A DNA stretch of 49,683 nt from Candidatus Latescibacterota bacterium (GCA_029547385.1 JAKPPK010000074.1:1-49683); one strand, 5' to 3'. Counted from the stretch's first letter, positions 5,246-42,581 are shown. The notes: generated from the letters alone by a model not told the origin. Made by a program: numbers and translations.

Positions 5246-5341
5246 ACGGGATGAAACTCCCGCGCACCCGTGGATGTAATGGTACCACATGTGTGAATCC
5301 ACCCGTTGGCATCACGACTCGCGGTAACAAGAACACGAACC

Positions 5342-10847: not shown

Positions 10848-11037
10848 GGCTGGTCCCGTGCCGTGGCATTTGACGTTGATGATCACAAAAAATACGCAGT
10901 GACCTCGCGGCGAACCACGGTCGGAATGGACTACCGTTTGGGCGCCCGATCATTTTTCGTTAGGTATTCTGTGGCGATCTGTTGCAGTGCGATCAGCAAC
11001 ACAACCGTGAAACGATACGGTTGCGGGAGGTGGGAAA

Positions 11038-24493: not shown

Positions 24494-25564
24494 ATGAACG
24501 GCGTTCAGATGGACAATGCCAGCGAGATTGTGCGCGGTGATTCGACGCAACCGGCGTGCAACGAAGTCCTGGTTCCTCCCTCTGCAGACGGTATTCGGCT
24601 CGATCGCGCCATCGCGGCTCTCCTCCCCGGGATCAGTCGTTCGCAAGCGTCGGTGGCGATCCGCGATGGACGGGTGCAGCTCTTTTCTCCGAAAGGGAAG
24701 GTCGTCTCGCATCTCAAAGCCGGCACTCCTGTTGCGGCAGGCCAGACCGTGCGCATTGTGGTTGCCCGGAAAGATCCGTTGTCCGTAGAGCCTGAGGGTA
24801 TTGACCTGGACATCAGGTACGAAGACGACGACCTTCTGGTTGTGAACAAACCTGCGGGATTGGTAGTCCACCCGGCCCCCGGCCATTCCGGCGGAACCCT
24901 CGTGAATGCGCTGGCGGGTTACAGCGCCGAACTTTCCCGGGTGGGCGGAACTTTCAGGCCGGGGATTGTACACAGGCTGGACAAAAACACCTCCGGCCTT
25001 CTTCTTGTGGCGAAGAACGATCGCGCCCACGCGGCTCTCGCAACCCAGCTCAAAAATCGCACGATTTCACGCGAGTACATCGCCCTTGTGTGGGGACATC
25101 CGTCGCCAGGTTCCGGGCGCATAGAGGCTGCCATCGGACGCGACCGGGCGGGTGGCAAAACCATGTCGATCTGCGGCAGAGCGAGCCGCGCGGCCGCAAC
25201 GAGATACGAGACCATCTCTGTTTTTTCCTATACAAGTCTGCTGCTGCTCCACCTGGAAACGGGAAGAACTCATCAGATCCGCGTTCATCTGAAGGCGATC
25301 GGACACCCTGTGGTAGGGGACCCAGAATACGGCGGAAGGGAAGCTGCAATTCGAGGGATCGCCCCCGCTCACAGATCTTCTGCGCGGTTCCTTCTCACTG
25401 TGATCGGGAGGCAGGCGCTTCACGCGAGGAAACTGTCTTTTCTGCATCCTGCCACAGGTAAGGCGCTCGTGGTGGAATCCGATCCTCCGGAGGATTTCCG
25501 GCGCGCGTTGAGTATTGTTGCAGGCGCTGTTCCACAAGCCGCGGATTTATCTTATTTTCGATAG
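24494..25564 (+). CDS. rluD: RluA-family pseudouridine synthase (RluD-like)
   Basis: S4-like RLDRAIA..SRSQ, VVNKPAGLVVHPAPGH, RPGIVHRLDKNTSG, LETGRTHQIRVH, RQALHA; start uncertain (24482-24509). Confidence 0.92.
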   Translation: MNGVQMDNASEIVRGDSTQPACNEVLVPPSADGIRLDRAIAALLPGISRSQASVAIRDGRVQLFSPKGKVVSHLKAGTPVAAGQTVRIVVARKDPLSVEPEGIDLDIRYEDDDLLVVNKPAGLVVHPAPGHSGGTLVNALAGYSAELSRVGGTFRPGIVHRLDKNTSGLLLVAKNDRAHAALATQLKNRTISREYIALVWGHPSPGSGRIEAAIGRDRAGGKTMSICGRASRAAATRYETISVFSYTSLLLLHLETGRTHQIRVHLKAIGHPVVGDPEYGGREAAIRGIAPAHRSSARFLLTVIGRQALHARKLSFLHPATGKALVVESDPPEDFRRALSIVAGAVPQAADLSYFR

Positions 25565-25613: not shown

Positions 25614-25642
25614 TTGACAAGAGATTGTCGTTCAAGTAATTT
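25614..25642 (+). promoter_or_regulatory. Putative sigma70-type promoter of the TPR gene cluster
   Basis: TTGACA-N17-TAATTT. Confidence 0.6.
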
Positions 25643-25725
25643 GTGTGCATGCCTACGCGCAAAATCTTGGTAGGTTTGCTGCTTCGCCACGATAGCGCGG
25701 TTCCTACCGCGGAAAGACGACGGGA

Positions 25726-27984
25726 ATGCTGACACTGAGGAATTTGTGGTGCCGCAGGGGCTTCTCGGCGATCTGTGCGATTGGCCTTTGTGCCTCCTCA
25801 TTTTCTGCAGTGTTCGCGCAGGATGACCGCGAAGGCGAACCGGCAACGCCCTACCGAGATGCCTACATCGCGTACGTCGACCGGCAACTCTCCGAAATTC
25901 AGTCCCAGATCGCCTTCCAACGGAGCATTCTCAACGAGCGGGGCGGCGAACTCCTCGATGAAATTGGAATTCGCCTTCAGGAGAAACTCGCGCTCCTTCC
26001 TCCGGAAATGCGCCAACCGGGGATTCCGGAACCTCCAGAAATCGTTGCTTTGAGGGAATATGAACAAACTCTCAGCAACGAGGTGGTCCAGATTGAGGAC
26101 AGGATCCTGTCCTCGGCCGACATGATCTCAGAGCAACGCGATTCTGTTGCCGGTGAACTGAAATCGGCAGATGCCGTGCGCGCCACGGTGACAGAACTGG
26201 ATCGGTCCATAACGACAGATCTCGAACTCTGGAAAACGAAGGTCGATCTTGTGAGATCGCGCCTGATCGGTTCAGGCAGCGCCGGTGAAGGCCGGCGCAT
26301 GTTCGTCACCGAATACAACGCGCTGGTATCCCATTACGATGCCGGTGATTATCGCTCCGCCCGCGCTCGATTGACCGCCCTGGCCACGGCATATGGCGAC
26401 ATTCCGCTTCCTGAGTGGCGCGAGAGGCTGCTGTTCTACCGTGCGGAAATCGATTACGCGATGGGCGACTGGGATAACGCCTTCAGGGGCTACATGGAGG
26501 TGTGGCAACGGCCGCGGAATGAGTTCGCTTCGGTTGCCCTCCTGAACTGGACGGAGCTGGCGTTTGCAGCGGGTGAACACCGCAAGATCGCAACCATGTG
26601 GACCGCACAACCTCGGCTGCCCGAAGACGTGGTGGATGCCAACCGCATTCGCGTGTTGGTTGCGGAAAGCTTCCTGCGCCTCAACGAGCCGCAGGTTGCC
26701 CTTTCGGTGTTGAATCTTGTGCAGACGGCATTGCCACCCGCGGCAGAGGATGCCGTGGACGACGAGGAAACAAAACTCGCGAACGATCGCCTGGTAGTCT
26801 ATTCACGGCTTTTGAGAGCCGAAGCGCACTTGGGCGGCGATAGCGGCGTGGCGACACTGCAAGGTGCTGCCAGCGAGGAAACGCTTCCCGAAGTCACGGA
26901 TTCGGCTCTGGATTCGATGCTGGCGGCGACGGGAGGCACTCCCCAGAGGGGAGACCCGAACTACTATTCACGCATGGCGTACCTGATCGCCAGCGGGCAG
27001 GTACAGGCGGAGCGCCCCGGGCGTGAAGCCGGGACTCGCGTCGCGGCCGCCGTGAAAGAACTTGAGGATGTCGTTCCCCTCGTCGGTCCAATCGATCCTG
27101 AGGGAACGTTGATGGCTCGTGTTTCCATGTCCCTTGGCCACGCGTATTTTCAGGCCAACCGCATGGAGGACGCTGCCAGGGCATACGGGGCGGTTCCGAA
27201 TACGTCTGTGTGGTACCCGGAAGCGCAGCTGGGGCGCGCGTGGGCGTTTATCGAGACAGGAAACTATCTTGACGCGAAAATCGCAGTGAACACAGCCCAG
27301 CGTTGGCCACTGAGCCCCCCTGCGGCTCTGGAGGCCGCCGCTCTGAACAGCTATGTGTTATCGCTGATCGGAGAAACTGAGCTTGCGGCTGAGCAGATGC
27401 GCGAGATGAAGTCCATGGTGGACATCCAGCAGCGTCGCGCCGCGCGCGTGTGGGTGAATCAGCAACTCCAAAAGATTGATGGTTCTCTGCACCTTGTCGG
27501 CATCATCGCGCTGGAACGCCAGAATGAAGCACTCTACCGTTCCGCGATAGAGGAACAGGCGAGTCTCCTGGCACTGCGCGAACAGGTTCAACGGGTGGAG
27601 CAATACCTCCAGTCTTATACGCCGAACGCGACCGGTCTTCAAGACAGCCTCACCGTCGCGATCCGCGCAGAACAAGAGGCATTGCGAGGGCTTGAGCAGA
27701 AGGTTGCGAACCTGAGACGTGCGGCGGGTCAGACTCCCGCGGCCGCTGCGAATTTGCCTGAGATTACGTACGAACAGCGTAGAGAGCAGCTCCAGCGTTG
27801 GCTGCAGGGTGTCCAACCCCAGATGACTCCTCAGGGATCCCAGGTGTACGGCAAGTGGGTGCAATATGCGGAATTCGCGTATTCTCGGCGGGTTTTTGAT
27901 GAGAACCAACGGCGCCGTTACGAAGCGGACAGGCTGAAGGACGTTCGTACCCGCATCCAAAAACTGCTTTCGGAGTCGCCATGA
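25726..27984 (+). CDS. Exported TPR/coiled-coil protein (GltC-like)
   Basis: Signal peptide (AVFA-Q); TPR helices, e.g. SLGHAYFQANRMEDAARAYGAVPNTSVWYPEAQLGRAWA. Confidence 0.75.
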   Translation: MLTLRNLWCRRGFSAICAIGLCASSFSAVFAQDDREGEPATPYRDAYIAYVDRQLSEIQSQIAFQRSILNERGGELLDEIGIRLQEKLALLPPEMRQPGIPEPPEIVALREYEQTLSNEVVQIEDRILSSADMISEQRDSVAGELKSADAVRATVTELDRSITTDLELWKTKVDLVRSRLIGSGSAGEGRRMFVTEYNALVSHYDAGDYRSARARLTALATAYGDIPLPEWRERLLFYRAEIDYAMGDWDNAFRGYMEVWQRPRNEFASVALLNWTELAFAAGEHRKIATMWTAQPRLPEDVVDANRIRVLVAESFLRLNEPQVALSVLNLVQTALPPAAEDAVDDEETKLANDRLVVYSRLLRAEAHLGGDSGVATLQGAASEETLPEVTDSALDSMLAATGGTPQRGDPNYYSRMAYLIASGQVQAERPGREAGTRVAAAVKELEDVVPLVGPIDPEGTLMARVSMSLGHAYFQANRMEDAARAYGAVPNTSVWYPEAQLGRAWAFIETGNYLDAKIAVNTAQRWPLSPPAALEAAALNSYVLSLIGETELAAEQMREMKSMVDIQQRRAARVWVNQQLQKIDGSLHLVGIIALERQNEALYRSAIEEQASLLALREQVQRVEQYLQSYTPNATGLQDSLTVAIRAEQEALRGLEQKVANLRRAAGQTPAAAANLPEITYEQRREQLQRWLQGVQPQMTPQGSQVYGKWVQYAEFAYSRRVFDENQRRRYEADRLKDVRTRIQKLLSESP

Positions 27985-30179
27985 CCCACCGCTTTCGATG
28001 TGCCTTTCAGGCGCCCCTCGTGCGACTGTCGCGTTCGATTGCGGTCTGGCGGGGAATCTGTGGTGTTCGCGCACAGATTTCCAGCACAGTGTGCGTGATC
28101 GCGCTTGCAGGCCTCTGCGCGTCGAGCGTGAAGGCGGAGAGCGCTTCTCCGACGGATACGAGTTCTCTGCCAGCGCTCTTGCAGTCCAGCCTCGACGGAG
28201 CGATGACGGTGGAATCTGTCCTGCTGGGTGACCGCCGGGCTCTTCCGCCAATTCCGCGCCGGCAATTCAGTGTGGGTACCATTCCCCTGCCCCCGGTTTC
28301 GCCCGGCGATACGATCATCGTTCCGCAGGTAACGGGTGAGATTACGGATCCTGAACTGAAGGAGCGGGCGGACTCCCTGAACAGGAGTCTGCGGCTGCTT
28401 GCGATCGAAGAACGCCTGCTTGGGTCGGAATTGTGGGGTGGCGCGCCGCGAACGGGCGTGATTCCTCGCAAAGACTTCCTTGAGGCGAGGATCAATCTCC
28501 TGCGTGACATGGAGAACGTTCTCCAGATACGGCTCCGGGAAAAACTGGCGCAGCTTGATACCACCATTGCCCGGGTCGAATCCGAAATTGAGGCGAACAG
28601 GACAGCGGAAATTGCGTCGCTTGAGGATTACCTCGACAAGTACCCGAGCTCCGCGTCCGTTGCAGACGCCAAGTTCATACTCGGCCAGCTCTATTACGAC
28701 AAGGAACGAAAGCGCTACACGGATGCGATGCTGCGGTACACGACCGAATTCCAGAGGTACCGCATGGGGCTTCTGCCCGTCGCACCAGCGCCTCCAGTTC
28801 TGAACGAAGCAGTATCCGTCCCCTTTTACAAATCGGTGGTGGAACTCGGTACGAACCCCGATTTGGTGCCGTACTCACTCTACTCATTAGGCAAGTTTCA
28901 TCTTGAACAGGCACGTGATCTGAAGGCGCGATCCGATGAAAGCCGGTTGACGGGACGCCGTGAAGAAGCCCAGCATTTCACACACCTGAGCGAAATGGAA
29001 ACGGATTCCGCCAAAACCTATTTCGCGCGCCTCGTGGTGGAGTTTCCCGACGATTCGGTGAATGTTCCGGAAGCGTTCTACGTCCTGGCCTCGCACTACA
29101 ATATGCTCGGCGGACCGGTGAACCGCGATACCGCCGCGGTGTACTGCAACGCGTTGATCAAGAATTTCTGGTACTCACCGCGGTATCAGAACGCGCTCGT
29201 AATGCTGGGGCAGATCAACTACTACAACGGTGTCGGAACCAGGGAACGCGCCGCGCGGAATCGTTACTTTTCGAACGCACTTGCCTACATGGCCTGGTTG
29301 GCACGCGATGTTGACGCGTTCACAGAGTCCCAGATACCCGGTGTGTCTCCGGATCCACCGCGGATGATGGATATTACGAGACGCGATTATGCCGTGCAGT
29401 TCATGACGCAGATTATCACGCGCCAAAGTCCGCTTCCCGGAACGGAACCTCCTCCTCCTGTTGAAACGGCGGTGAAACTGGTTACTGCGGCAGGCAATCC
29501 TCCGTTCGGAGCGGACCTGTTGAGACAGGTCGGAGACAAGAAGAACAGCGACTACAACACCAGTGGCAATCCCGTGGACCTCGTTGCTGCGCTCACCGCG
29601 TACGACAGCCTGTTGTCCCGCTATCCTACCTACAAAGAAGGTCCACAGATTCAGCAGGTGGTAATCGACGGTGCGACGTACCTCTCGGACGATCCCGCGG
29701 AACGGTACCGCATCTACGTTCGGCAGAAACTGCTGTTCTTCGAACGATTCAATCGAAACAGCGAATGGGCGCGACAAAATCAGGACTCGCCTGCGGTGGT
29801 CAAAGCGGCGGACGATTCCGCCGCCGCGTATCTTGAAACAGGCGCGCGATGGTTATACAGCACCGCACGCGCCGCGAATGACCGCGAGGGCGTGCGGAGG
29901 AGTCTGGATTACTTCGTGAAATTCTTCCAGACGTATCCGGAACGTCCACAGGCGTACGAACTGAACTGGAGCCTTGCGACAGAATTGCGTGATCTCGGCG
30001 ACTATGAGCGCGCGTACGAGGAATTCATGCGGGTTTCGAATGCCGATCGGAGCCAGTACCGCGAGGATGCTGCGTTGGAAGCCGTGGCTGCGGCACAAGC
30101 GTTGGTCGAGATGGAACAGTCCGGTTCCCGGTCACCCGGACGGGCTCAGGAAACTCAACCGCCCGGTGGAGGACGCTAG
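27981..30179 (+). CDS. Exported TPR protein (resembles the N-terminal half of GltD/AgmU-type proteins)
   Basis: ATGA overlap; hydrophobic leader; LEDYLDKYPSSASVADAKFILGQLYY and repeated F/Y..+..YP TPR turns. Confidence 0.75.
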   Translation: MTHRFRCAFQAPLVRLSRSIAVWRGICGVRAQISSTVCVIALAGLCASSVKAESASPTDTSSLPALLQSSLDGAMTVESVLLGDRRALPPIPRRQFSVGTIPLPPVSPGDTIIVPQVTGEITDPELKERADSLNRSLRLLAIEERLLGSELWGGAPRTGVIPRKDFLEARINLLRDMENVLQIRLREKLAQLDTTIARVESEIEANRTAEIASLEDYLDKYPSSASVADAKFILGQLYYDKERKRYTDAMLRYTTEFQRYRMGLLPVAPAPPVLNEAVSVPFYKSVVELGTNPDLVPYSLYSLGKFHLEQARDLKARSDESRLTGRREEAQHFTHLSEMETDSAKTYFARLVVEFPDDSVNVPEAFYVLASHYNMLGGPVNRDTAAVYCNALIKNFWYSPRYQNALVMLGQINYYNGVGTRERAARNRYFSNALAYMAWLARDVDAFTESQIPGVSPDPPRMMDITRRDYAVQFMTQIITRQSPLPGTEPPPPVETAVKLVTAAGNPPFGADLLRQVGDKKNSDYNTSGNPVDLVAALTAYDSLLSRYPTYKEGPQIQQVVIDGATYLSDDPAERYRIYVRQKLLFFERFNRNSEWARQNQDSPAVVKAADDSAAAYLETGARWLYSTARAANDREGVRRSLDYFVKFFQTYPERPQAYELNWSLATELRDLGDYERAYEEFMRVSNADRSQYREDAALEAVAAAQALVEMEQSGSRSPGRAQETQPPGGGR

Positions 30180-30181
30180 GC

Positions 30182-33100
30182 ATGATGACGTTCTCACGCC
30201 TTCCGAAATTCCGCGTCCTCCGTTCACTCGTCGGCGTGGGTCTGGTGAGCCTTCTCATCGGCTTTCTGGTGATCGGAGGTAAACCCTCTCCCGCTCCCGC
30301 CCAGTTTTCGGCTGAGGAGCTGGAACGGAATCCGAATCTTACGCCGTCAGTCCGCAGGCTCATTCTCGCCTACGAAAACTACCTCAAGCATTTTCCGGAC
30401 AGCCCGCAGGGCAAGGAATTTGTGATCGACATCGCCGAACGTTTCCGCTCGGCGGGCGATAATGAGACGGCGATAGTCGCGCAGAAACGCGTGCTGGCCC
30501 GTCCTGATATCACGCAGGCGGAACGCGCGTACGCGTATGAACAGATAATGGAATGTTACCGCCTGCTCGGAAAGTTTGACGAACAGGAGGAATGGGCGCG
30601 CCGGATGGCGGCAGCCGATGTCGGCCGCGAGAAACAACAGCAGGCGAAGGACTTCATCTTCGCGGCCGGATACAACCGGGCAAAGGCACTCGAGGACAGC
30701 TCACGGCTTATGGATGCCGCCGAAGCGTATGAACGTCTGGCGGTCATGAATCCCGACCACGGGCAGGCGTCGGAAGCCATGCTCAAAGCCGCGGACCTGT
30801 ACGACACCGCAGGTGACAAGGCACGTGCGGCGAGGACGTTCGAACGATTCTACTATACGTACCCCGATTACCGCGATCCTGCCAGTGGAAAGGGTGCGCT
30901 TGTCGCTCTCGAGAACGCGGCCAACCTGTACGCGGAGATCAACGATTACCGCCACACGGCCGATGCCGCGGAACGGATTCTTGCCGCAGCGCCGGACCAT
31001 CCGAACCGCCAGATGTACATGAACAACCTGGCGGCGATCTACAGCCTCCTGAAGGACTACAACAACGCGATTCGTGTGCGGCAGCAGTACGTTGCGTTGT
31101 ACCCCAACGATCCCAAATCAGGGACATACCAGTGGGATATCGCTCAATTCCGGGGCCTTGCGGGTCAGCGGCAGCAGCAGCTCGCCGAATACGAGGCATT
31201 TATCCGGAGCTATCCTAACGATTTCCGCGCCATCGAAGCGAATTTGATCGTCGGACAGGACAAGCTTGCGCAGCGTGATCGAGCCTTGGCACGAGGCGCC
31301 AGAGACGAGGCGGAACGGTTGCAGGCGCTGGCACGGGCCAACTTCGAGAAAGCGTTCACACTGCATGATTCCCTCGAAGCCTTGAGGCAAGGTTCGGGGG
31401 ATCTTCTGCACGCGCTTCCCGCCGCAGTCGAAGTGGCGAAAATGGACAGTGCCGCGTATTACTCGATCTCATTACGCGGTTCACCCAGCTTCTCGCAGGA
31501 CAGCACAAGAAAATGGGAGTCGTTGCGGCAAGCCGAAGGGATGTACCGCAAGATCGCAAACTACGCCTATCCGCCGACGACGTTTGCTGCGTTGTATCAA
31601 CGTGGTCGCCTGTTTGAGGACTTCTCTGCCGAGTACCTGAAACAACCGCGTCCCGATTCGGCCGTCACGTACGACGAAATCAACAAGGTGTTTTTCATAA
31701 ACGAGGTATCAAAGCAGTTCCTGCAGGTCCTCGCAATTCCTGCGTATCAGACTCAGATGCTGGAATTCTACGAGACGAACCGTGCCTCGATAGACACCGC
31801 GGCGGCGACGCTCCCGGATACATCACTCAGAACGGCGCATTTGCCGTGGCTTGACATGGCGCGCGAGCGACTTGCCGCCATACCGAGAACGTTGGACAGC
31901 CTTACCCTGAATACGATCGCGTACGACGCTGACCTGACGGTGCTTAAGGCGCAGGAGAAAATTCCGCAAACCATCGCCGAGAAATGGCCGGCGTTCGAGC
32001 GGCAACAACAGGAACGCTATCGCACGGACCCGCGCCTGCGTTTCGGAGACAAACAGGAGATTTTCGACCGCGGTGTGGCACCCGTTGTCTACGGGTCGGG
32101 GCCCCAGGATTCTCTGGCGCTCGTGAACTACTTCCAGCGGATTATTGCGGATGGCGAACGCCTTGGCGCCTCACGGGACTGGGTGCTGTACAACAAGGGC
32201 CGTCTCCGCCTCGTGTACGGAGCTCGAAGCTCGTACTTCTCGACGGTTACGCGGGAGGGCATGGAAAACCTGGGATTCCAGCTTGATACGTTGCGGCAGG
32301 AATCGAACGGCCTGACAAATATCATAGCGCGCCTCCCGAAACTGGATCTCGCGGCGATCGGCCCGCCGCCGGAGCGCCCGGACCTGACGCCGCCGGCCCA
32401 GCCGGTGAGGCCGAATGTGGACCTCCGCGCTCCGGAAAACCGGGCCATAGCGCTGCGCTTCATCGAGGATTTCAACCGCTTCAAACGGCAGGTCGAGGAC
32501 CTGAAATATCGTGCTGTCCGATACCAGCGCGAAGTGGAACGGTACCGGGCGCGCGTTGCCGAGCTGCAGGCAAGCACGGCGGCGCAGTTCCGGGGGATAC
32601 TCGAAGAAGCGAGAACACAATCGCAGGAGTTTTCCCGGGTGGCGACCGAAACGCAGAGGTATCGGATGGCCATCGAACTGGTGGCTGATCGGACGCGGAA
32701 CGCATACGAGCGCGATATTGCGTTCGGCGATTCCGTGGGTTACGCCGAGAAGGACCGCCGTGCCGTCAGGGACAGTGCGCTGGCCGCAAATCACAGGATT
32801 TCCCTTACCTTGGATTCGTTGTACAGCGAAGCTGTGGCAACAAGACGGTACTGGGAAGAACGGCGCGATTCAACGGAAGGCGGCGAGGCCTCACCTGCAT
32901 TCCAGGTGATCAATAATCTCGTTACGCAGTACGCGGCAGTCGCTGATTCGTTCCGGGTGACGGCAGTTCGAAGCTACATGTACACGTACAAAGGACGCGA
33001 TTCAATCTTCACCGTCGGCCTCGATCATCCGATTGTTCAGTACGCGATCCAGCGTCTCCGGGTGATTGATCCGACCTTTGGCGTCCAGACGGTGCCGTTG

Positions 33101-34219
33101 ACGTTCACCTACGTCACCGAGGACTCCACAGGTCTGTGGCGGGTCAGCAGCACCATCGACCGCCAGAACCCGGATGCGTGGAGGCAGGTCGCGTTCAATG
33201 ACAGCACGTGGGTCCCTGCCGTCAAGGGAACGATGCCGCGCGTTGAGTTTGTTCAGGCTGCCGATACAACCGCCGGTGCAGCGGGACAGCCAGAACCGGC
33301 GGCCGGCGAAGGCGCTGTCACAGCGGAAGGCGATACGACGGCCGAGGCTGCTCCGCAGGTGGCGGAAGTTCCCAAGATCGTCGGTTTCCCGCCTGACAAC
33401 CTGAACATGACGGACCTCTGGTCGCCGACGTATGCCGACACGGTGTATTTCCGTTACAAGCTGCAGTTGCCTCCACGGTGGGATGAGCTGCCCGACTCGT
33501 TGTCCGAACCGGGGCGGAAGCGGCCGGTGGTGCGCAAAGCAAGTATCACGATTACTGCGGACGACGATTATGTGGTCTACGTGAACGGCGAGGTGACGCC
33601 GGCGCGCGACACTGATGCACGGGTAGACTGGAAAACCGCGCGCACGTATGAGGTGTTGAAAGACCAGTGGACAGTCGGCGACACCGCAAACATTATTGCG
33701 ATACGCGCGCGCAACGAGAAGCGCCTGAATCGTATTCCCGACACGGATACCACGACGTACGGCGTCATGGCACGTATCGACATCGAGATGGACGTGCCGC
33801 TGTATATTTACGAAGCGCTGTACCGCCCACCGGAACCGGAACCAACCTTCGTGCTGGCGTTTACGCCGGACGACTCGGTGAAAATGGCCGATACCACCGG
33901 TACCTACTTCCGAACGGCTGCTGAGCGCGAGCGGTGGCAGGAATGCCGCACGCGTACCCTCCGGGCTGCGTGGGAGGACACGGTGCTGATTCCATGGCGC
34001 GCTCAACGCGATGCCCTGAAGAAGGCGCAACTGGACTCCGAAATCGTTCGGCTCACCCGCTGGATCCGTCAGCGGCAGGAGGAAGCACGCGGTCGTATCG
34101 CAACCGCGGCGGCCCGCGAAGCCGGGTTGGAAGAATCGGGTGAATCCCCCGCTCCCGACGCGGGTGCTGATTCCCCGCAGGAAACCCCGGCGCGGCCCGA
34201 AGACACAGGCGGACCATAG
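30182..34219 (+). CDS. Giant TPR protein with coiled coil and C-terminal beta-sandwich (lectin/galactose-binding-like) domain
   Basis: N-terminal signal/anchor; many TPRs (AYENYLKHFPDS, AAEAYERLA..NPDH); C-terminal WRQVAFNDSTW, YFRYKLQL, ITADDDYVVYVNG, NIIAIRARN. Confidence 0.75.
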   Translation: MMTFSRLPKFRVLRSLVGVGLVSLLIGFLVIGGKPSPAPAQFSAEELERNPNLTPSVRRLILAYENYLKHFPDSPQGKEFVIDIAERFRSAGDNETAIVAQKRVLARPDITQAERAYAYEQIMECYRLLGKFDEQEEWARRMAAADVGREKQQQAKDFIFAAGYNRAKALEDSSRLMDAAEAYERLAVMNPDHGQASEAMLKAADLYDTAGDKARAARTFERFYYTYPDYRDPASGKGALVALENAANLYAEINDYRHTADAAERILAAAPDHPNRQMYMNNLAAIYSLLKDYNNAIRVRQQYVALYPNDPKSGTYQWDIAQFRGLAGQRQQQLAEYEAFIRSYPNDFRAIEANLIVGQDKLAQRDRALARGARDEAERLQALARANFEKAFTLHDSLEALRQGSGDLLHALPAAVEVAKMDSAAYYSISLRGSPSFSQDSTRKWESLRQAEGMYRKIANYAYPPTTFAALYQRGRLFEDFSAEYLKQPRPDSAVTYDEINKVFFINEVSKQFLQVLAIPAYQTQMLEFYETNRASIDTAAATLPDTSLRTAHLPWLDMARERLAAIPRTLDSLTLNTIAYDADLTVLKAQEKIPQTIAEKWPAFERQQQERYRTDPRLRFGDKQEIFDRGVAPVVYGSGPQDSLALVNYFQRIIADGERLGASRDWVLYNKGRLRLVYGARSSYFSTVTREGMENLGFQLDTLRQESNGLTNIIARLPKLDLAAIGPPPERPDLTPPAQPVRPNVDLRAPENRAIALRFIEDFNRFKRQVEDLKYRAVRYQREVERYRARVAELQASTAAQFRGILEEARTQSQEFSRVATETQRYRMAIELVADRTRNAYERDIAFGDSVGYAEKDRRAVRDSALAANHRISLTLDSLYSEAVATRRYWEERRDSTEGGEASPAFQVINNLVTQYAAVADSFRVTAVRSYMYTYKGRDSIFTVGLDHPIVQYAIQRLRVIDPTFGVQTVPLTFTYVTEDSTGLWRVSSTIDRQNPDAWRQVAFNDSTWVPAVKGTMPRVEFVQAADTTAGAAGQPEPAAGEGAVTAEGDTTAEAAPQVAEVPKIVGFPPDNLNMTDLWSPTYADTVYFRYKLQLPPRWDELPDSLSEPGRKRPVVRKASITITADDDYVVYVNGEVTPARDTDARVDWKTARTYEVLKDQWTVGDTANIIAIRARNEKRLNRIPDTDTTTYGVMARIDIEMDVPLYIYEALYRPPEPEPTFVLAFTPDDSVKMADTTGTYFRTAAERERWQECRTRTLRAAWEDTVLIPWRAQRDALKKAQLDSEIVRLTRWIRQRQEEARGRIATAAAREAGLEESGESPAPDAGADSPQETPARPEDTGGP

Positions 34220-34231
34220 GAGTTGAACGTC

Positions 34232-34546
34232 ATGAAAAATCCACGCCTGGTTGCGTTGTCCATCTCCGCGCTGTGTACGGTTGTGTTGATAGCTCCCTTC
34301 GTGGGCGCGCAGGAAGCTGTGCGAACCGTTCGGGGGGCGGGGACAATCCGGGAAAAACCCCCGGGTGAATTGGCGACAGTGGTGCGACGGGATCCAGATT
34401 TCCGCACGATCAAATACCTCGGGATGCAGCGGGATTACCGCGATGAATTGCGCTCCAAGTTGATGCTTGGCCACGCGGTTATCCGACACGGACGTCCCGT
34501 CCTGCCTATGGAGCCAATCGTGTGGCCGCCCGAACCGGCGCAGTAA
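34232..34546 (+). CDS. Small exported protein, GltF/CglF-like
   Basis: GGAG RBS; signal peptide (VGA-Q); TIREKPPG..VVRR.PDF..R.DY..EL; position between the TPR genes and exbB. Start 34223 or 34232. Confidence 0.6.
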   Translation: MKNPRLVALSISALCTVVLIAPFVGAQEAVRTVRGAGTIREKPPGELATVVRRDPDFRTIKYLGMQRDYRDELRSKLMLGHAVIRHGRPVLPMEPIVWPPEPAQ

Positions 34547-34562
34547 CGCGCGGAGAAGCGTC

Positions 34563-34591
34563 TTGACGTGCGGGGGGTGACAGGCTAATTT
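34563..34591 (+). promoter_or_regulatory. Putative sigma70-type promoter of the exbB-exbD-exbD-tonB-like genes
   Basis: TTGACG-N17-TAATTT, same architecture as 25614-25642. Confidence 0.6.
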
Positions 34592-34737
34592 CAGTTCGTC
34601 GCGGTAAGGTGAAAAGGATCTTGCCAGAACTCGAGTGTGGTAGCGGGCAGGTGTATCAGAAGTCGGTCGGGCGCGGTCAAACGGGTCGGCGGCTCGCCGG
34701 GTGTCTTTCATAAGTTTCAGTATCTACGGAGGATACG

Positions 34738-35562
34738 ATGGGGATGCAGTCCTTCCGAAAACGGGCGAGGAAAATCGCCTATTTTGGTGTCGTGGCGGGA
34801 ATGTTCATGGTGTCGTACGCATTTGGCCAGGCGGCGGCTCCTGCGGAAGGCGCCGCAGCCCCTGCGGCTGGCGGCGCCCCGACCGAGCAGACGATTGACC
34901 CGAACATCGTCGTGAAGAAGGTTGTTACGGGGTTCATGAGCGATTTCAAACCCAAAGCCACCGGTGCGTGGTTGTTCCAGTGGCCGATCGTGATTTCGTT
35001 TGCGTGCGGTATCGGCATCGCCGCGGAACGCTACTACACGATCGTAATGAAATCGAAAGTGAACATGAAGAAGTTCACCGATCAGATTATCAAGTTCGTC
35101 GAAGTAAAGGATTACGACAAAGCGATCGCGTTGTGCAACGCATCGCCTTCGGGAGCCCTGCCGCAGCTTGTAAAGGCCGGTTTGGAGGCCGCGAAACGCA
35201 ACATGGGAACGCGCGCGGTGCAGGATGCGATTGACGAGAAAACCCTCTCGATCCTGCCGAAGATCACATCGCGGACCTCCTGGGTGAGTGTTTTGGCAAA
35301 CGTCTCGACACTTCTGGGTCTTATGGGAACCATCTTCGGTCTGATGTATACGTTTGCCGGACTTGAACTGGTACTGAACCCGAAGGGCAAGGCGGACCTT
35401 CTGACTTCAGGCATTGCAACAGCTATGAACACGACGCTGCTGGGTCTGGTGTGCGCGATTCCGCTCACCCTGCTTTTCCAGTACCTGTCGCAGGCCAGCA
35501 AAGCGATCGTGGATGACATTGACGAAAGCTCTGTGCGAATTATCAACGCGCTGAGCAGGTGA
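34738..35562 (+). CDS. MotA/TolQ/ExbB proton-channel protein (AglR-like)
   Basis: GGAGG RBS; IAAERY, ANVSTLLGLMGTIFGLMYTF, GIATAMNTTLLGLVCAIP. Confidence 0.92.
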   Translation: MGMQSFRKRARKIAYFGVVAGMFMVSYAFGQAAAPAEGAAAPAAGGAPTEQTIDPNIVVKKVVTGFMSDFKPKATGAWLFQWPIVISFACGIGIAAERYYTIVMKSKVNMKKFTDQIIKFVEVKDYDKAIALCNASPSGALPQLVKAGLEAAKRNMGTRAVQDAIDEKTLSILPKITSRTSWVSVLANVSTLLGLMGTIFGLMYTFAGLELVLNPKGKADLLTSGIATAMNTTLLGLVCAIPLTLLFQYLSQASKAIVDDIDESSVRIINALSR

Positions 35563-35589
35563 TTTGGCATCTGATTTGATCTCTGCGTG

Positions 35590-35623
35590 CCCGGCATCCT
35601 TTCCTCGAAAAAAGGATGCCGGG
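35590..35623 (+). other. Strong intergenic hairpin between exbB and the first exbD
   Basis: Perfect 13-bp inverted repeat cccggcatccttt/aaaggatgccggg; no U-tract. Confidence 0.7.
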
Positions 35624-35702
35624 GGGAAAGACGCCCACGGGTAATGCGTTGTTCCCGGAGCGGATCGAGATTTCGACCTTTTAGACGTGTCGAGGAACAG
35701 CA

Positions 35703-36281
35703 ATGCCAGGCTTTGCGCCATCGAAGAGATCGCGTGCAGAAGAGAAAGAGACGCCGCTGAATCTGCAGGTTGTTATGAACCTTATCTGCATTCTCATTCC
35801 GGCGCTCCTCTCCATGCAGGTCCAGGATTACTACCGGCACGACGTGGAATTGCCTACGCGGGGCGGCGGCGGTGGCGGCCCAAGTTCTGGTCCCACGAAC
35901 CCTCCCTTCAACCTGAAAATGACGATCATGGAAGACGGGTCCTTCGTGATCGTGAACGCCAAGACACTCTCCCCTGCCGACGGTCTGATTCCGGCCGGGG
36001 CGGGCCTGGCCGTTCCTCCCATCAATGGCGAGCCCGATTACCAGAAGCTTCAGCTTGTGATGATGAAAGAGCACAAAGAGCGGCTCGGCGGCCAGCCACC
36101 GGAAGCGTTTCCAGATCCTGACCAGATCACCGTATCCGCACCCGGCGACCTCGATTTCCAGCACGTGATCAAGGCGCTGGATCGCCTTCGGTTCGAAAAA
36201 CCGGCCAGTGAGCTTGATTGGTCGAGCGCAAAACAAATGTTTACCGTGATAAGTCTTTCTCCCGGTAGCGTCGGTGGTTGA
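35703..36281 (+). CDS. ExbD/TolR-family protein (AglQ-like), Asn at the conserved Asp position
   Basis: LNLQVVMNLICILIPALL TM; D.ITVSAPGDLDFQHVIKALDRLR periplasmic motif. Confidence 0.82.
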   Translation: MPGFAPSKRSRAEEKETPLNLQVVMNLICILIPALLSMQVQDYYRHDVELPTRGGGGGGPSSGPTNPPFNLKMTIMEDGSFVIVNAKTLSPADGLIPAGAGLAVPPINGEPDYQKLQLVMMKEHKERLGGQPPEAFPDPDQITVSAPGDLDFQHVIKALDRLRFEKPASELDWSSAKQMFTVISLSPGSVGG

Positions 36282-36311
36282 GGAATACCTCACAGCGTAA
36301 GGGGTTAGCGA

Positions 36312-36788
36312 ATGCCAGGCTTCCCACCATCAAAACGGAAAGCAAAAGAGGAAGAGGGCGGCGACATCAACATCACGTCGTTGATGGACGCCTTCACCAT
36401 CATCCTCGTGTTCCTCATCAAGCAGTTCGGTACGAGCGCCGTGGAGATATCCGCGGGGTATCGTCCCCCGGTCTCCAACACCCGTCTGGCCATTGATCGC
36501 ATCCTGCCGCTTCAGGTCCGTCAGATCGGTCCGGACGCGATTTCTTACCAGATTTCCGACAAGCCGGAAAAGGCGGAACGCAAGGACCCGAATGTCGGAT
36601 ACGCTCAACTACGTGCGGACCTGAAGGCCCAGAAGCCTCTGGTGGATGCCGCGGTGGTTGACGAAGAACTCAAAGGCGCAATCAATATCGTGTGTGACAA
36701 AAGTGTTACCTACGCGACGTTGATGGATGTGATGAAGAGTGTTGCTGGTTCCGGCTTTTTCAAACTGAAACTCATAGCCGAACCATAA
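36312..36788 (+). CDS. ExbD/TolR-family protein (AglS-like)
   Basis: DINITSLMDAFTIILVFLIKQF TM with conserved Asp; INIVCDKSVTYATLMDVMKS..GF. Confidence 0.88.
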   Translation: MPGFPPSKRKAKEEEGGDINITSLMDAFTIILVFLIKQFGTSAVEISAGYRPPVSNTRLAIDRILPLQVRQIGPDAISYQISDKPEKAERKDPNVGYAQLRADLKAQKPLVDAAVVDEELKGAINIVCDKSVTYATLMDVMKSVAGSGFFKLKLIAEP

Positions 36789-36823
36789 AGTCCGGTGCAA
36801 ACGTTGCTTTCTGAGGTGCAACC

Positions 36824-37981
36824 ATGGCAGACAACCACGTTCCTCCACCGGCGCAAGCAAAAGCAGTGGCAGCTCCGATGGTATTTCCGCCCGAGCTTCG
36901 CAGGCATTTCTACGACACGGCCGACTGGACCAGCATCATCTTCCTGTTGGTATCGCTCACCATCAACATGCTGGGCATTGGAATTGCCGCGTCGCGGGAG
37001 TGGAAAGACCCCGCTGCAGGTCTGACCGACGAGCAGCTCATGGCGATGCAGGATCGCATCATGGCGACGTTCAAACCGGTTGAAGTGAAGCCGGAGGAGA
37101 TGTCGGCGGCGGAACAGCTCGAAAACCTTGTCAATAACCCTGAGTTCGAACAGGCACTCGCTCAACAGCAGGCAAACCTCGCGGCAAGTCTTCAGAGCAC
37201 CTTGGCCGAAGCCCAGGCGACACTCGCCTCGCTTGACGCCCAGACCTCGGCTGGCGCTGCAGGCGGCGCTGACGTGCAGGGGCAGCTTGACGACATACTG
37301 GGGAGCCTCGGCGACATTGGAGCGGTCGGTGCCGCAGACGCAGGTGGTCCTTCGCTTGACCTCGCCCCGACGGATGTAGCGATCTTCGCAGAGGGCGCTG
37401 GCTCGGGAAGCCGCGTGGTTTCGGGGGCGATTGACGTGGCAGCGCTCGGTTCGTCGGCGAAGATATCCTCTGCGTTTACCCGCGGAGGCCTTTCCTCCGG
37501 CGAAGCTGCGCGTCTTTCACAGCAGATTGCCTTTGCGCGCGAACGACTGGGTGGAAATGTGCAGGTGCGCGTCGGAACGGGTACCGGCGGCAGCGCGCGT
37601 CGTGCGCTGTTGCGTGTCGCGTCCGGAGGGAAAACCGGCCAGCGCATCGCCGTTGAACAGCTGGCACTCCCGCCCGCGCGTGCGGCAGGACCCGGCGGCC
37701 GGGATCAAGATGCGGTTGAGGTCCAGGCCTCCCGTACTCGTCAGCTCATTGGCGGTTGCTACTCGATCGGTCTGGCTGCAGATCGGAATCTTTCCGGGGT
37801 AGTGGTGGTCCGGTTCACTATCAACCCCAACGGCTCGGTGAGCGGCGTCCGGGTTTCCAAATCCAACCTTGGCAACCGTGACGTCGAAGAGTGCATCGTC
37901 GCTGCTGTCCAGACGTGGAAGTTCGCGCCCGGCTCAACGACCGACACGTTCGAGTATCCGTTCAGCTTCGAGCCCGGCTAA
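36824..37981 (+). CDS. TonB-like energy transducer with AgmX/PglI-type C-terminal domain (GltG-like)
   Basis: Single TM; Ala/Gly/Gln-rich spacer; CY..GLAADRNLSGVVVVRFTINPNGSV...LGNRDVEECI...WKF...YPFSF. Confidence 0.85.
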   Translation: MADNHVPPPAQAKAVAAPMVFPPELRRHFYDTADWTSIIFLLVSLTINMLGIGIAASREWKDPAAGLTDEQLMAMQDRIMATFKPVEVKPEEMSAAEQLENLVNNPEFEQALAQQQANLAASLQSTLAEAQATLASLDAQTSAGAAGGADVQGQLDDILGSLGDIGAVGAADAGGPSLDLAPTDVAIFAEGAGSGSRVVSGAIDVAALGSSAKISSAFTRGGLSSGEAARLSQQIAFARERLGGNVQVRVGTGTGGSARRALLRVASGGKTGQRIAVEQLALPPARAAGPGGRDQDAVEVQASRTRQLIGGCYSIGLAADRNLSGVVVVRFTINPNGSVSGVRVSKSNLGNRDVEECIVAAVQTWKFAPGSTTDTFEYPFSFEPG

Positions 37982-38001
37982 TCTCACGCACCAGAATAGA
38001 A

Positions 38002-38046
38002 AAACGCGTCCGCGGGAAGAAACACCTGCGGACGCGTTTCATTTTG
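38002..38046. terminator. Probable bidirectional intrinsic terminator between convergent operons
   Basis: aaacgcgtccgcggg/cctgcggacgcgttt hairpin with an A-run before and T-rich sequence after. Confidence 0.75.
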
Positions 38047-38078: not shown

Positions 38079-39371
38079 TCACGGGATGCGGGGGATATCC
38101 ACAACGCGCCTTTCCTCACGCGCAATGTCCGCACAGAATCCGATCATATGGCCGTTAATTGAGTCGTCGAGCGTCGTGGCGGCTATGGAGCGCGGTTCGC
38201 CGCGAATGAAACGAACGAAATCCTCAACAAGCAGCCTGTCGCCGCCCCCGTGCCCTCCGCGCTCCAGTTCCGGGGTGGCCACATTCAGATCCACCGTTTC
38301 CTCTGAGTATTCGTGCGCTGGGCGGGGATCGATGTGCCGAATGACGAAGCGGTTGTCTTCCAGAACTCCCTGGATTTCTCCCTGCGTTCCCACAAGGTGG
38401 ATTGAGCGAACAGGCCTTGCCGTGCCGCCCACCATGCTGTGAACGGCAGTCGATCCGTCTGCGAACTCCACGCTCACGGTCTGATGGTCCACCACATCGT
38501 TGTCACAGCGCCACACGCAGAGCCCGTAAGGGTTCGTGGTTCGGAGAGACTCAATCTTGTCTTCGATGGTTGGTTCTGCGATGTGCTCGATGCTGTCCCA
38601 GACGTAGAAACGCCACCGATCTGGGTGATCAATGTAATGCTTGCGCGCAGAATACATGCACCCTTCTTCTATGGGGCAATCAACGAGGCACCTCGTTCCA
38701 GCTCCCTCCGGCATTTTGTCGCGACGGAAATACATCAGTGAACCATGACTTGCCACGGAAACCGGCGCCACCCCGCTCTTCATCCACGCGATAAGATCGA
38801 GATCATGGCAACATTTCGCCATAAGCATGGAGGACCCGCATGTGTCCTTCCTGCGCCATTTGCCGCGCACAAAGCCCACAGCCATGTGATGGTAACTTAC
38901 GTGTTCAACGGTTTGCACGCTCATGATGTCGCCGATTTCGCCCGCCGCCACGCGTGTGCGGATGGCGGTGTAGAACGGGGCGTACCTCAGAACGTGACAG
39001 ATCATCACGGTTCGTCTCAGTCGGCGGGCCGCCTCGTACAGCCGGAGAAGGTCTTCAATATTCGTAGATATCGGCTTTTCCAGCAGAATGTCGTACCCTG
39101 CTTCCAGAAGCGGCAGCGAGGTGGGTACATGCAGCGAATCCATGGTGGCATTAATCGCAACATCCGCACATTTGGGATATGCGACCAGTTCCTCCACCGT
39201 TGAGAAGCAGCGCTCCGCCGGTATGTCGTACAACGACGCGGCTCGCTCTCGACGCAACGGCGAGGGGTCCACCACGCCAGTGATTGCGAACTCCTCCGGA
39301 CGGTGTTTGGCGTACGAAGCGGCTCCCAGACCTCTGTGGCCGGCTCCGACAATGATGGCTCGCACCTGCAT
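38079..39371 (-). CDS. Gfo/Idh/MocA family oxidoreductase
   Basis: IIVGAGHRG, LLEKPI, CHVLRY, KCCHDLD, HGGGD. Confidence 0.92.
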   Translation of the reverse strand: MQVRAIIVGAGHRGLGAASYAKHRPEEFAITGVVDPSPLRRERAASLYDIPAERCFSTVEELVAYPKCADVAINATMDSLHVPTSLPLLEAGYDILLEKPISTNIEDLLRLYEAARRLRRTVMICHVLRYAPFYTAIRTRVAAGEIGDIMSVQTVEHVSYHHMAVGFVRGKWRRKDTCGSSMLMAKCCHDLDLIAWMKSGVAPVSVASHGSLMYFRRDKMPEGAGTRCLVDCPIEEGCMYSARKHYIDHPDRWRFYVWDSIEHIAEPTIEDKIESLRTTNPYGLCVWRCDNDVVDHQTVSVEFADGSTAVHSMVGGTARPVRSIHLVGTQGEIQGVLEDNRFVIRHIDPRPAHEYSEETVDLNVATPELERGGHGGGDRLLVEDFVRFIRGEPRSIAATTLDDSINGHMIGFCADIAREERRVVDIPRIP

Positions 39372-39376
39372 GTTCC

Positions 39377-40348
39377 CTACCTGCTTTCGGAGCGAAGGTC
39401 AAGCCAGGCGATTTCCGCGGTGGTCAAACGGACTGTGCTCGCTTCCACACACGCTCCGAGTTCGCTCGCGTCCGCAGCGCCGACACAGGCGAACACGTTC
39501 ATCGGTTGGCTCATGACGTATGCCAGGGCGATCTGCGGGATCGTGAGGTGCTTCTCGCGCGCAAGCGTTTCCACCCGGTCAAGGCGCTCGAGATTCTCCT
39601 CGTGGCAGTACGCCCTGCGGCACGCACCGTCCAGCGAGTCTTTGAATGCGTCATACGTCTTCCGAGTGAACCTCCCGGAAAAAAAGCCACGGGCGAGGCT
39701 GGACCATGCGAACACGGGAATCTGATTCCCGGCGTACCAGGCACGCGCATCCGCGTGTTGCGGACCACTCAGGGTAACCGATCCGCTTCCCCACGGATCC
39801 TCGACCTGTGCCGCAAGACTGAAATTCGGACTGCTCACGACAAACGGAACAAGGCCGTGCGCTTCCGCATACTCATTCGCTTCGGCAATGCGGTGGTGAG
39901 TCCAGTTGGATCCGCCAAAAGCGTGGATTCTGCCCGCCGCCCTGTGTTCATTCAGTGCCTCTACGATCGGCCCGACCGGCTGCGCGGGGTCATCCCGGTG
40001 GAGAAGGTAGATATCCACGTAGTCCGTTCGCAGTCGGGCAAGCGAATCGGCAAGATCGGACGCGATGTCGAAAGGTGTTACCCTTCGGCGGTCCGCATTC
40101 GGGTGGGCGCCCTTTGTAAGGATGACGACGTTCTCCCGAACATCCCGCTCAGCCATCCACTGGCCTATCGCCCGTTCACTGTTACCACCCGCATATACGT
40201 GCGCCGTGTCCAGCGTTGTGCAACCGAGCGCGAGGGCGTCATCCAGCAGGCGGTAACTCCGTTCTTTTTCCTCTGTCGTAACGATCATCGTACCGAGGAC
40301 AATACGGCTTACGGGCTTCTCGACGCCGGGAACCGACCCGAATTCCAT
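39377..40348 (-). CDS. Aldo/keto reductase
   Basis: SRIVLGT, DTAHVY, ILTKG, SLARLRTDYVDIYLLHRDD, FGGSNW. Confidence 0.92.
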   Translation of the reverse strand: MEFGSVPGVEKPVSRIVLGTMIVTTEEKERSYRLLDDALALGCTTLDTAHVYAGGNSERAIGQWMAERDVRENVVILTKGAHPNADRRRVTPFDIASDLADSLARLRTDYVDIYLLHRDDPAQPVGPIVEALNEHRAAGRIHAFGGSNWTHHRIAEANEYAEAHGLVPFVVSSPNFSLAAQVEDPWGSGSVTLSGPQHADARAWYAGNQIPVFAWSSLARGFFSGRFTRKTYDAFKDSLDGACRRAYCHEENLERLDRVETLAREKHLTIPQIALAYVMSQPMNVFACVGAADASELGACVEASTVRLTTAEIAWLDLRSESR

Positions 40349-40362
40349 GCGGTGAATCTCCA

Positions 40363-41364: not shown

Positions 41365-41442
41365 GTGTTGACCTCAGAATCGCATAGATGCCGGCAATGA
41401 AACAGGGAACCGAAAATCATCAAACAGGGAAGAACCATCGTT

Positions 41443-42516: not shown

Positions 42517-42581
42517 TGTGTCTCGTCTCCGTCACTGGTGGAACTGGGTAACCATTCTTGTCTCATCACAGCCAACCGCCG

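Follow-up and report, generated by a model that had tools for sequence, protein, structure and literature searches.

What kind of machine is encoded when genes for an ExbB/ExbD motor and a TonB-like protein lie in one operon with very large repeat proteins, in a bacterium outside the myxobacteria? The question is raised by a contig of Candidatus Latescibacterota bacterium (assembly GCA_029547385.1, JAKPPK010000074.1:1-49683; 49,683 nucleotides (nt)), contig C41 of a host assembly of 3.54 Mb in 588 contigs that is 95% complete; we refer to this whole stretch as the window. Here, eight co-oriented open reading frames (ORFs) on the + strand span positions 25726-37981 and encode proteins P0001 to P0008 of 752, 732, 1345, 107, 274, 192, 158 and 385 amino acids (aa). 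A first-pass annotation had read them as an Agl-Glt-like trans-envelope device composed of three exported tetratricopeptide repeat (TPR) scaffolds, an exported protein of about 105 aa, one ExbB/TolQ, two different ExbD/TolR subunits and a single-pass TonB-like protein. The ORFs and their translations are real and have the sizes claimed, with signal peptides assigned by eye only; the small protein measures 107 aa from a TTG, or 104 aa from the ATG at 34232 used by its relatives.

The closest published counterpart is the Group B gene set, or core complex, described by Luciano et al. 2011. It comprises gltC, gltD, gltE and gltG, aglR, aglQ and aglS and one additional gene, which lie together in one cluster in Gamma- and Betaproteobacteria, in Geobacter and in Fibrobacter succinogenes (PMC3169522). 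Wartel et al. 2013 regard it as perhaps a 'basal transport machinery' whose function is not known (PMC3858216), and our literature search returned no paper since 2011 testing the function of the Glt core complex outside myxobacteria. The operon of the window holds, in one cluster with an extra small gene, an AglR-type ExbB, two ExbDs, a GltG homologue, a GltC-like protein and a split GltD. We consider it very probable that this operon is a standalone Agl-Glt core complex in the form of the Fibrobacteres-Chlorobi-Bacteroidetes (FCB) lineage, and the earlier description of the genome as FCB-like agrees with the 28 type IX secretion system (T9SS)-type C-terminal sorting domains that exceed the model cut-off in the host.

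An AglR-type motor with an unequal ExbD pair

The channel subunit P0005 matches MotA_ExbB at 75.8 bits (cut-off 22.9). A full scan of 1.84 billion representatives yielded 7503 ExbB relatives at E ≤1e-3 and 26 at E ≤1e-30, and a genome scan started from five ExbB sequences provided 80 loci of other species. The closest ExbBs, with 35-47% identity, belong to metagenome-assembled genomes (MAGs) labelled KSB1, Myxococcota or Deltaproteobacteria, Fibrobacterota, Bdellovibrionota, Calditrichota, Gemmatimonadaceae and Gammaproteobacteria. In a 45-row tree, P0005 falls into a 38-row clade (support 100/97) with core-cluster ExbBs from many phyla, a clade that also takes in the ExbB-ExbD-ExbD sets of Myxococcota-group genomes endowed with full-length GltG. 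The outgroup consists of E. coli TolQ and ExbB, two ExbB paralogues of the host (contigs C332 and C484) and two further paralogues, while another paralogue (L124) branches as the row sister to the clade. Within the clade, the P0005 lineage (100/100) nests with Fibrobacterota, KSB1, Deferribacteres and Bacteroidota rows in a group of 12 rows (100/99). A quick tree of 111 rows agrees, so that the ExbB groups with AglR-type rather than Ton or Tol channels.

The host genome encodes three MotA/ExbB genes in all: P0005, a TolQ-like/TolR-like pair on C332, and a Ton locus on C484. The latter (L145, 2452-6684, - strand) is an ordinary Ton locus with a TPR protein of 419 aa, an ExbB of 438 aa, two ExbDs of 154 and 142 aa, both retaining the membrane Asp, and a TonB of 221 aa.

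The claim of two different ExbD/TolR subunits holds as well. P0007 matches Pfam ExbD at 41.2 bits (cut-off 25.4). P0006, which carries a Gly-rich insert after its transmembrane helix, reaches that model only at E = 0.08, and is matched at 1e-29 by a profile of 71 first-position ExbD homologues; the same profile also matches E. coli ExbD (9e-13) and TolR (1e-11). The column aligned with D25 of E. coli ExbD and D23 of TolR was surveyed across 71 clusters (loci L024-L103 and L128-L130). There, the second ExbD has Asp in 70 of the 71, and the first has Asn in 46, Asp in 16 and another residue (Ser, Gly or Ala) in nine. P0006 has Asn and P0007 Asp. Both ExbDs bear Asp in the host Ton locus, in clusters of the Bdellovibrionota and Gemmatimonadaceae types and in the Agl-like sets of genomes with gliding genes, and both AglQ and AglS of M. 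xanthus are described with a conserved Asp (PMC9389320).

Two variant arrangements of these motor genes were observed. In six Fibrobacterota loci (L037 at 10761-12059, L038, L040, L043, L056 and L057), a second ORF, of about 430 aa, matches both ExbB and the first ExbD and looks like an ExbB-first ExbD fusion; one ExbD and a TonB-like gene follow. Of the six, only L038 shows a large TPR gene upstream in the same orientation, for a protein of 587 aa. In a 2.7-Mb Myxococcota-group genome with a GltC-D-E-F-G cluster, two ExbB-ExbD-ExbD sets lie back to back in divergent orientation (L128, G225:C2, 6931-10763) and belong to different parts of the Agl-type clade.

A GltG-type transducer and a small companion protein

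P0008 has a short cytoplasmic end, one hydrophobic helix, a long linker rich in Ala, Gly and Gln, and a C-terminal TonB_C domain (41.3 bits in Pfam; 50.7 bits for TIGR01352). This last part matches the AgmX/PglI C-terminal domain model NF033768 at 74.2 bits (cut-off 40), and C312, Y313 and C357 are invariant in 23 relatives, which bears out the earlier reading of a single-pass TonB-like protein ending in a CY...C AgmX/PglI-type domain. The GltG model matches P0008 at model positions 565-646 only, and an iterated P0008 profile recovers full-length GltG-like proteins at 206-235 bits. No FHA domain was matched on P0008 in Pfam or NCBIfam, as the first-pass annotation had noted, a situation that is normal for standalone core clusters.

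P0004 has no match in the Pfam and NCBIfam family scans, and its 12 close homologues have the conserved motif IREKPPGELATxxRRDPDF. Among 95 small ORFs collected directly 5' of ExbB, 52 belong to one family, to which the family of P0004 itself aligns by hhalign (prob 95, E = 4e-8); this core small-protein family is in turn weakly linked to the GltF/CglF-like protein of a Myxococcota-group reference (prob 75, E = 2.5e-5). The NCBIfam CglF model reached only E = 0.04-0.12 on ten small proteins. The 'additional gene' of the core complex may thus be a distant GltF, to judge from these profile comparisons. In a published AlphaFold model, a strand of GltF pairs with the TonB-like domain of GltG (PMC11761067). 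Folded alone, P0004 gave one confident helix in a low-confidence model (pLDDT, the predicted value of the local distance difference test, 63.9), and prediction of P0008 residues 200-385 with P0004 residues 28-107 scored 0.26 and 0.00 against a mark of 0.32, which is evidence neither way.

Scaffolds resembling GltC and a divided GltD

The three TPR proteins match TPR models only below Pfam cut-offs, and the YbgF-type TPR model (tol_pal_ybgF) scores 26-52 bits on them (cut-off 90). For comparison we used two Myxococcota-group references. The first (L115, a G1-type cluster) scores 295 bits for NCBIfam GltC, 106 for GltE, 70 for CglF and 434 for GltG, the last full length and with its FHA domain. 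In the second (L129), the canonical core consists of proteins of 764, 1221 and 429 aa, followed by ExbB, ExbD, ExbD and a TonB-like protein of 473 aa, with scores of 52 bits for GltC, 118 for GltE, 126 for GltG (positions 225-648) and 81 for NF033768.

Aligned by hhalign, P0001 residues 160-691 correspond to positions 30-454 of the 764-position GltC-like family (prob 99.6, E = 1e-23, 422 columns), a match that covers just the first 454 positions. P0002 residues 26-728 correspond to positions 12-645 of the 1221-position GltD-like family (prob 100, E = 1e-42), and P0003 residues 43-567 take up the same family at positions 665-1175 (prob 99.9, E = 3e-36). This continuity is also found in an unsplit protein of 1534 aa from a KSB1-labelled MAG (L025), in which residues 50-552 are equivalent to P0002 and residues 582-1514 to P0003 residues 47-1202; the cut in the window thus falls between the equivalents of its residues 552 and 582. 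As judged from these alignments, the three TPR proteins are a GltC-like protein and a GltD homologue split into two genes. The specific similarity to GltC and GltD that the first-pass annotation had expected is therefore present, and its assignment of the trio to GltC, GltD and GltE stands in part: the GltC-like and GltD-like matches are specific and colinear, but GltD is split in two and GltE was not found.

A frameshift artefact at the P0002/P0003 junction was considered and rejected. The split is kept in four families (loci L024, L131, L132, L133 and L134), and P0003 has a hydrophobic N-terminal segment of its own. Close homologues of P0003 (P0182 and P0186) carry the precomputed Pfam label PF28559.

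Beyond its GltD-like part, P0003 has an additional domain. AlphaFold2, run on 15 sequences, predicts for residues 940-1300 a beta sandwich followed by a long helix (mean pLDDT 77.7), the domain being interrupted by a low-complexity loop. In Foldseek this predicted jelly roll matches the N-terminal sugar-binding domains of GH2 enzymes, BcsB and a rhamnosidase module (E from 5e-5 to 1e-3), and in VIA-align it superposes on residues 32-184 of 5uj6_A with a Z of 11.9 and a root-mean-square deviation of 3.6 over 139 residues at 19% identity. Among the loci examined, it was detected only in FCB-type clusters: those of the host phylum, the MAG loci with large unsplit GltD-like proteins (KSB1, Deferribacteres and Bacteroidota labels) and two Fibrobacterota loci.

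A conserved eight-gene module

Gene order is conserved well beyond the host. The same eight genes occur in the same order in a family-level relative (L024, L132) and an order-level relative (L131, 8/8), and the order is kept on contig-cut loci from three further families of the phylum (L133, L134, L135 and L137). Genes flanking the cluster are different: none is common to the host and its relatives, and therefore the eight genes behave as a module. An AglR-type ExbB was found at E ≤1e-20 in 11 of 168 genomes of the phylum, the host included; one of these (G074) is doubtful at 31% identity, the other ten represent four families, and no other family matched.

Outside the phylum, 67 of the 80 other-species loci have at least two ExbDs after ExbB, 63 a TonB-like gene and 56 a large upstream TPR gene. 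The three features coincide in 46; the remaining 34 are in many cases cut by contig ends or show Fibrobacterota or Bdellovibrionota rearrangements. Motor branching, scaffold similarity and gene order, the three points on which the first-pass annotation could have failed, all came out on its side. Together with the distribution given by Luciano et al. (PMC3169522), these counts substantiate the earlier statement that related core clusters occur outside myxobacteria.

Weighing the core-complex reading against other envelope systems

Several observations weigh against the assignment to the core complex. No GltE equivalent was found, and the operon has no separate gene of GltE size; against the GltE-like family, hhalign gives only TPR-level similarity (prob 90-97, E from 2e-6 to 2e-10), which is less strong than for GltC and GltD. 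Neither of the two NCBIfam models, GltC and GltE, matches P0001-P0003 directly, direct phmmer searches with P0001, P0002 and P0004 against canonical Glt clusters returned no match, and pairwise searching against Myxococcota Glt proteins gave a single weak one (P0003 residues 231-524 on GltD-like 692-1019, E ~1e-6). TPR profiles cross-match and drifted when iterated, so that it is the length of the hhalign matches and their colinearity that carry the scaffold assignment. Our 'Agl/Glt' references are Myxococcota-group genomes with GltG at 413-472 bits, under the equivalog cut-off of 650, and not M. xanthus proteins: GltG exceeded the cut-off in none of 151 genomes and in none of an order-level set of nine, and a GltC search of 301 genomes, four candidates being scored in each, found none at E 1e-130. 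Rows of the ExbB tree were picked by similarity to the query, with few Ton or Tol outgroups and with M. xanthus AglR absent. The combination of one ExbB and two ExbDs is not diagnostic of an Agl-type motor, because the ordinary Ton locus on C484 shares it. Finally, no outer-membrane part was identified, and the 'self-contained' nature of the device claimed earlier is an assumption.

Could the operon instead be a Tol-Pal-like system for envelope integrity and cell division, with P0008 in the place of TolA and YbgF/CpoB-like TPR proteins as cell-wall coordinators? Such a system would fit the tol_pal_ybgF scores, which rise to 150 bits in a Myxococcota GltD-like protein, and TolQ models are the best named ones for P0005, even if the TolQ equivalog gives 51 bits against a cut-off of 221. 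No TolB exceeds the cut-off in the host genome, but the TolB model stays below it in a Bacteroides control too, so the absence says little. P0005 lies outside the TolQ group of the 45-row tree, the host has its separate TolQ-like/TolR-like pair on C332, and neither the cluster nor its surroundings show a TolB or Pal gene, the 20 ORFs scanned on its flanks being housekeeping or unrelated. Gammaproteobacteria keep a canonical Tol-Pal system. They are also among the lineages in which core clusters are reported (PMC3169522), and on balance we regard a Tol-Pal-like function as quite improbable.

A specialised Ton system, in which ExbB, the two ExbDs and a TonB paralogue would energise an unlinked TonB-dependent transporter with the TPR proteins as accessories, is highly improbable. 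The TonB_C and TIGR01352 scores of P0008 point in that direction, and the Ton locus on C484 likewise combines the succession ExbB-ExbD-ExbD-TonB with a TPR gene. Yet the host already possesses that Ton set, P0005 falls outside the group formed by E. coli ExbB, TolQ and the C484 ExbB, the C-terminal domain of P0008 is of the AgmX/PglI type, and the motor keeps its GltC-like and GltD-like scaffolds across phyla. The same 20 flanking ORFs include no TonB-dependent receptor, in line with the earlier statement that neither such a receptor nor tolB/pal is adjacent.

T9SS-bearing lineages often glide, but by a different motor. It is extremely unlikely that the operon is the complete gliding motor of a non-myxobacterial glider, in spite of its kinship with the Agl-Glt core and the 28 T9SS-type sorting domains of the host, since the cluster is without every Group A part found gliding-essential, P0008 is without FHA, and no outer-membrane barrel or adhesin is encoded in the operon. 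Luciano et al. describe the Group A parts as confined to Myxococcales and Bdellovibrionales and argue that the core alone does not drive motility (PMC3169522). The full Myxococcus-type gliding set is accordingly absent at the level of the operon, at which alone the Group A parts were judged: there is no FHA domain and no barrel gene, and in particular none of the GltA/B/H barrels, as had been reported before. A T9SS motor was rejected because the protein families differ.

A putative mechanism and a possible link to glycans

In a published Agl-Glt model, an inner-membrane motor driven by the proton-motive force (PMF) is coupled via a TonB-like protein to a periplasmic TPR shaft (PMC11761067). 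For the core complex of the window, the most likely mechanism would be that of a PMF-driven ExbB5-ExbD1-ExbD2 motor moving a GltG-type transducer that engages a GltD/GltC shaft, each step being drawn from the Ton, Tol and Agl literature. An ExbB pentamer with an ExbD1-ExbD2 heterodimer, in which a single Asp carries protons, would convert proton flow into movement; the membrane helix of P0008 would take up this movement, and its long linker would carry it across the cell wall to a scaffold of the two GltD halves and GltC beneath the outer membrane, with P0004 as a putative connector. We do not expect gliding to be powered by the cluster alone.

After the TonB-like gene, 19 loci have a Wza-like gene, 20 a putative beta-barrel gene and nine a Wzc-like gene; the loci with such export genes bear mostly Myxococcota or 'delta' labels, and two are Fibrobacterota. 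A Pfam check of five of the export-type proteins identified Poly_export with SLBB, BBP2_2, and Wzz with GNVR and AAA_31. This adjacency suggests that the Glt core is linked to polysaccharide export.

The order of the export genes 3' of the TonB-like gene was recorded for L027, L028, L032-L034, L039, L046-L048, L050, L053, L058, L061, L064, L065, L070, L076, L095 and L129: a protein of about 200 aa, a barrel of the BBP2_2 type, a short Wza (Poly_export plus SLBB) and often a Wzc-like protein.

Because the C-terminal half of GltD has a sugar-binding-like jelly roll and sister clusters adjoin Wza, Wzc and barrel export genes, an arrangement reminiscent of the handling of the Exo spore-coat glycan by Agl-Nfs, our preferred, if rather doubtful, guess is that the output of the machine acts on a glycan, a secreted polysaccharide or the cell wall. 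Here too there are facts on the other side: no Wza or Wzc gene adjoins the cluster in the loci of the window's own phylum, the three Poly_export genes of the host lie elsewhere in its genome, and the predicted jelly-roll fold alone does not show sugar binding. The main text of Luciano et al. 2011 makes no mention of polysaccharide or Wza (PMC3169522).

A broader proposal can be made along the same lines, and we offer it tentatively. Given the asymmetric stator (one ExbD with Asp and one 'dead' ExbD with Asn, fused to ExbB in some Fibrobacterota), the FCB jelly roll on GltD and the adjacency of Wza, Wzc and barrel genes in Myxococcota and Fibrobacterota, the standalone Glt core might be an ancestral PMF-driven device for handling glycans in the periplasm, and not a motility part, although we hold this to be less probable than its opposite. 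If it were true, a polysaccharide-organising motor would have come first and been elaborated later into gliding and spore-coat assembly in Myxococcus, and the small protein encoded 5' of ExbB would be the ancestor of GltF. The one-Asp stator pair bears on the stepping of 5:2 motors, and the natural cut divides GltD into two modules; taken with the jelly roll of the shaft and the Wza/Wzc adjacency, these features direct experiments to surface polysaccharide or the cell wall, not to motility.

Locus layout and neighbouring genes

The features of the operon are listed in Table 1. The first two ORFs overlap by 4 nt, and 2 nt separate the second from the third. Wider gaps precede ExbB (34547-34737, 191 nt) and the first ExbD (35563-35702, 140 nt); both contain weak hairpins and may harbour internal promoters or processing sites. 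The terminator proposed earlier is a hairpin found by a terminator scan, and the genes 3' of it are convergent with the operon; terminator-like sites in the region are not above chance (15 found against 14.6 expected). The candidate promoter can be read in the sequence but was not called by a sigma-70 scan, and is unproven.

Table 1. Positions of the operon features in the window, numbered from its first nucleotide.
Feature	Position	Strand	Description	Basis
Possible promoter	25614..25642	+	TTGACA-17 nt-TAATTT, 84 nt 5' of the first ATG	Sequence reading
P0001	25726..27984	+	752 aa, exported TPR protein, GltC-like	hhalign
P0002	27981..30179	+	732 aa, exported TPR protein, equivalent to GltD N-terminal half	hhalign
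P0003	30182..34219	+	1345 aa: GltD C-terminal half (aa 43-567), helical region, jelly roll, C-terminal long helix	
Predicted jelly-roll (galactose-binding-like) domain in P0003	33089..33796	+	About aa 970-1205	AlphaFold2, Foldseek, VIA-align
P0004	34223..34546	+	Small exported protein, distantly GltF/CglF-like	Homologue family, hhalign
P0005	34738..35562	+	274 aa, AglR-type ExbB/TolQ channel subunit with N-terminal signal-like extension	MotA_ExbB, tree
P0006	35703..36281	+	192 aa, divergent ExbD/TolR, Asn for transmembrane Asp	Profile of positional homologues
P0007	36312..36788	+	158 aa, ExbD/TolR, transmembrane Asp retained	Pfam ExbD
P0008	36824..37981	+	385 aa, GltG-type TonB-like transducer	NF033768, TonB_C
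Intrinsic-terminator-like hairpin	38002..38039	+	15-pair stem, then CATTTTG	Terminator scan

RNA-library contigs of at least 95% likeness, from four activated-sludge runs of three studies, match parts of all eight genes and span the P0003/P0004 and P0007/P0008 junctions. They are a weak hint of expression, as DNA can be present in such libraries. One contig starts at 25665, although contigs cannot show a transcript start; cover is absent from bins 25000-25450 and 38079-38500 and patchy elsewhere, and such holes prove nothing. Near-identical DNA was found in runs labelled activated sludge, wastewater and digester and in one soil metagenome.

Other parts of the window hold genes of different kinds. 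Four GFO/IDH/MocA oxidoreductase genes and an aldo-keto reductase gene occupy 38079-43607 on the - strand, convergent with the operon, and are followed by an HNH endonuclease gene at 43659-44780. At 2150-5245 (+) lies the gene for a protein of 1031 aa with an unusual fusion of Peptidase_MA, PD40 (TolB-like propeller) repeats and an Omp85 barrel domain. Three large proteins encoded at 5306-7942, 11038-15021 and 17546-19003 (+) have FlgD_ig-type C-terminal ends resembling those of T9SS cargo, one of them with FG-GAP repeats and Big_5; a DUF5723 protein is encoded nearby, and an ORF of 784 aa at 15186-17540 has no family match.

Comparison with known systems

With Ton and with Tol-Pal, CpoB/YbgF included, the operon has in common the MotA/ExbB/TolQ and ExbD/TolR families, a TonB_C domain, YbgF-type TPR repeats and presumably the 5:2 proton-motor principle. 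It differs in its separate ExbB clade, its unlike ExbD pair with one Asp, its very large scaffolds and the lack of an adjacent TonB-dependent receptor, TolB or Pal.

The motor, the C-terminal domain of the transducer, GltC and GltD belong to the same families as those of the M. xanthus Agl-Glt and Agl-Nfs systems, which probably work by the same principle of PMF motor, TonB-like protein and TPR shaft. By contrast, the cluster of the window is without GltA, GltB, GltH, GltK, CglB, GltI and GltJ, its GltG-like protein lacks FHA, and only one of its ExbDs bears the Asp described for both AglQ and AglS (PMC9389320).

Nearer still are the unsplit FCB-type clusters of KSB1-, Deferribacteres- and Bacteroidota-labelled genomes (L025, L026, L030, L031, L044 and L059), which share with P0005 its nearest ExbB clade (12 rows, 100/99), carry the jelly-roll C-terminal extension on their GltD-like protein and follow the same order of small gene, ExbB, ExbD with Asn, ExbD with Asp and AgmX/PglI-type TonB-like gene. 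These clusters encode GltD as a single chain of about 1530-1770 aa, together with a first TPR protein of about 1000 aa; in the window GltD is split, and an export signal of its own is present on the second half.

The core complex described in 2011 by Luciano et al. likewise unites in one cluster a single TolQ/ExbB with two TolR/ExbD, a TonB-like protein of the GltG type that lacks FHA, TPR scaffolds resembling GltC and GltD and, 5' of the motor, a small additional gene, and the cluster-associated ExbBs of Myxococcota, Fibrobacterota, Gammaproteobacteria and others are in the same clade as P0005. The window departs from it in that GltD is made as two exported proteins, the second with an added helical region and a predicted jelly roll, in that there is no separate GltE, and in the Asn that replaces Asp in the first ExbD, a replacement seen in most of the other core clusters examined. 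The operon is a variant of the core complex published in 2011, of which Fibrobacter was already an FCB member, and not a new machine.

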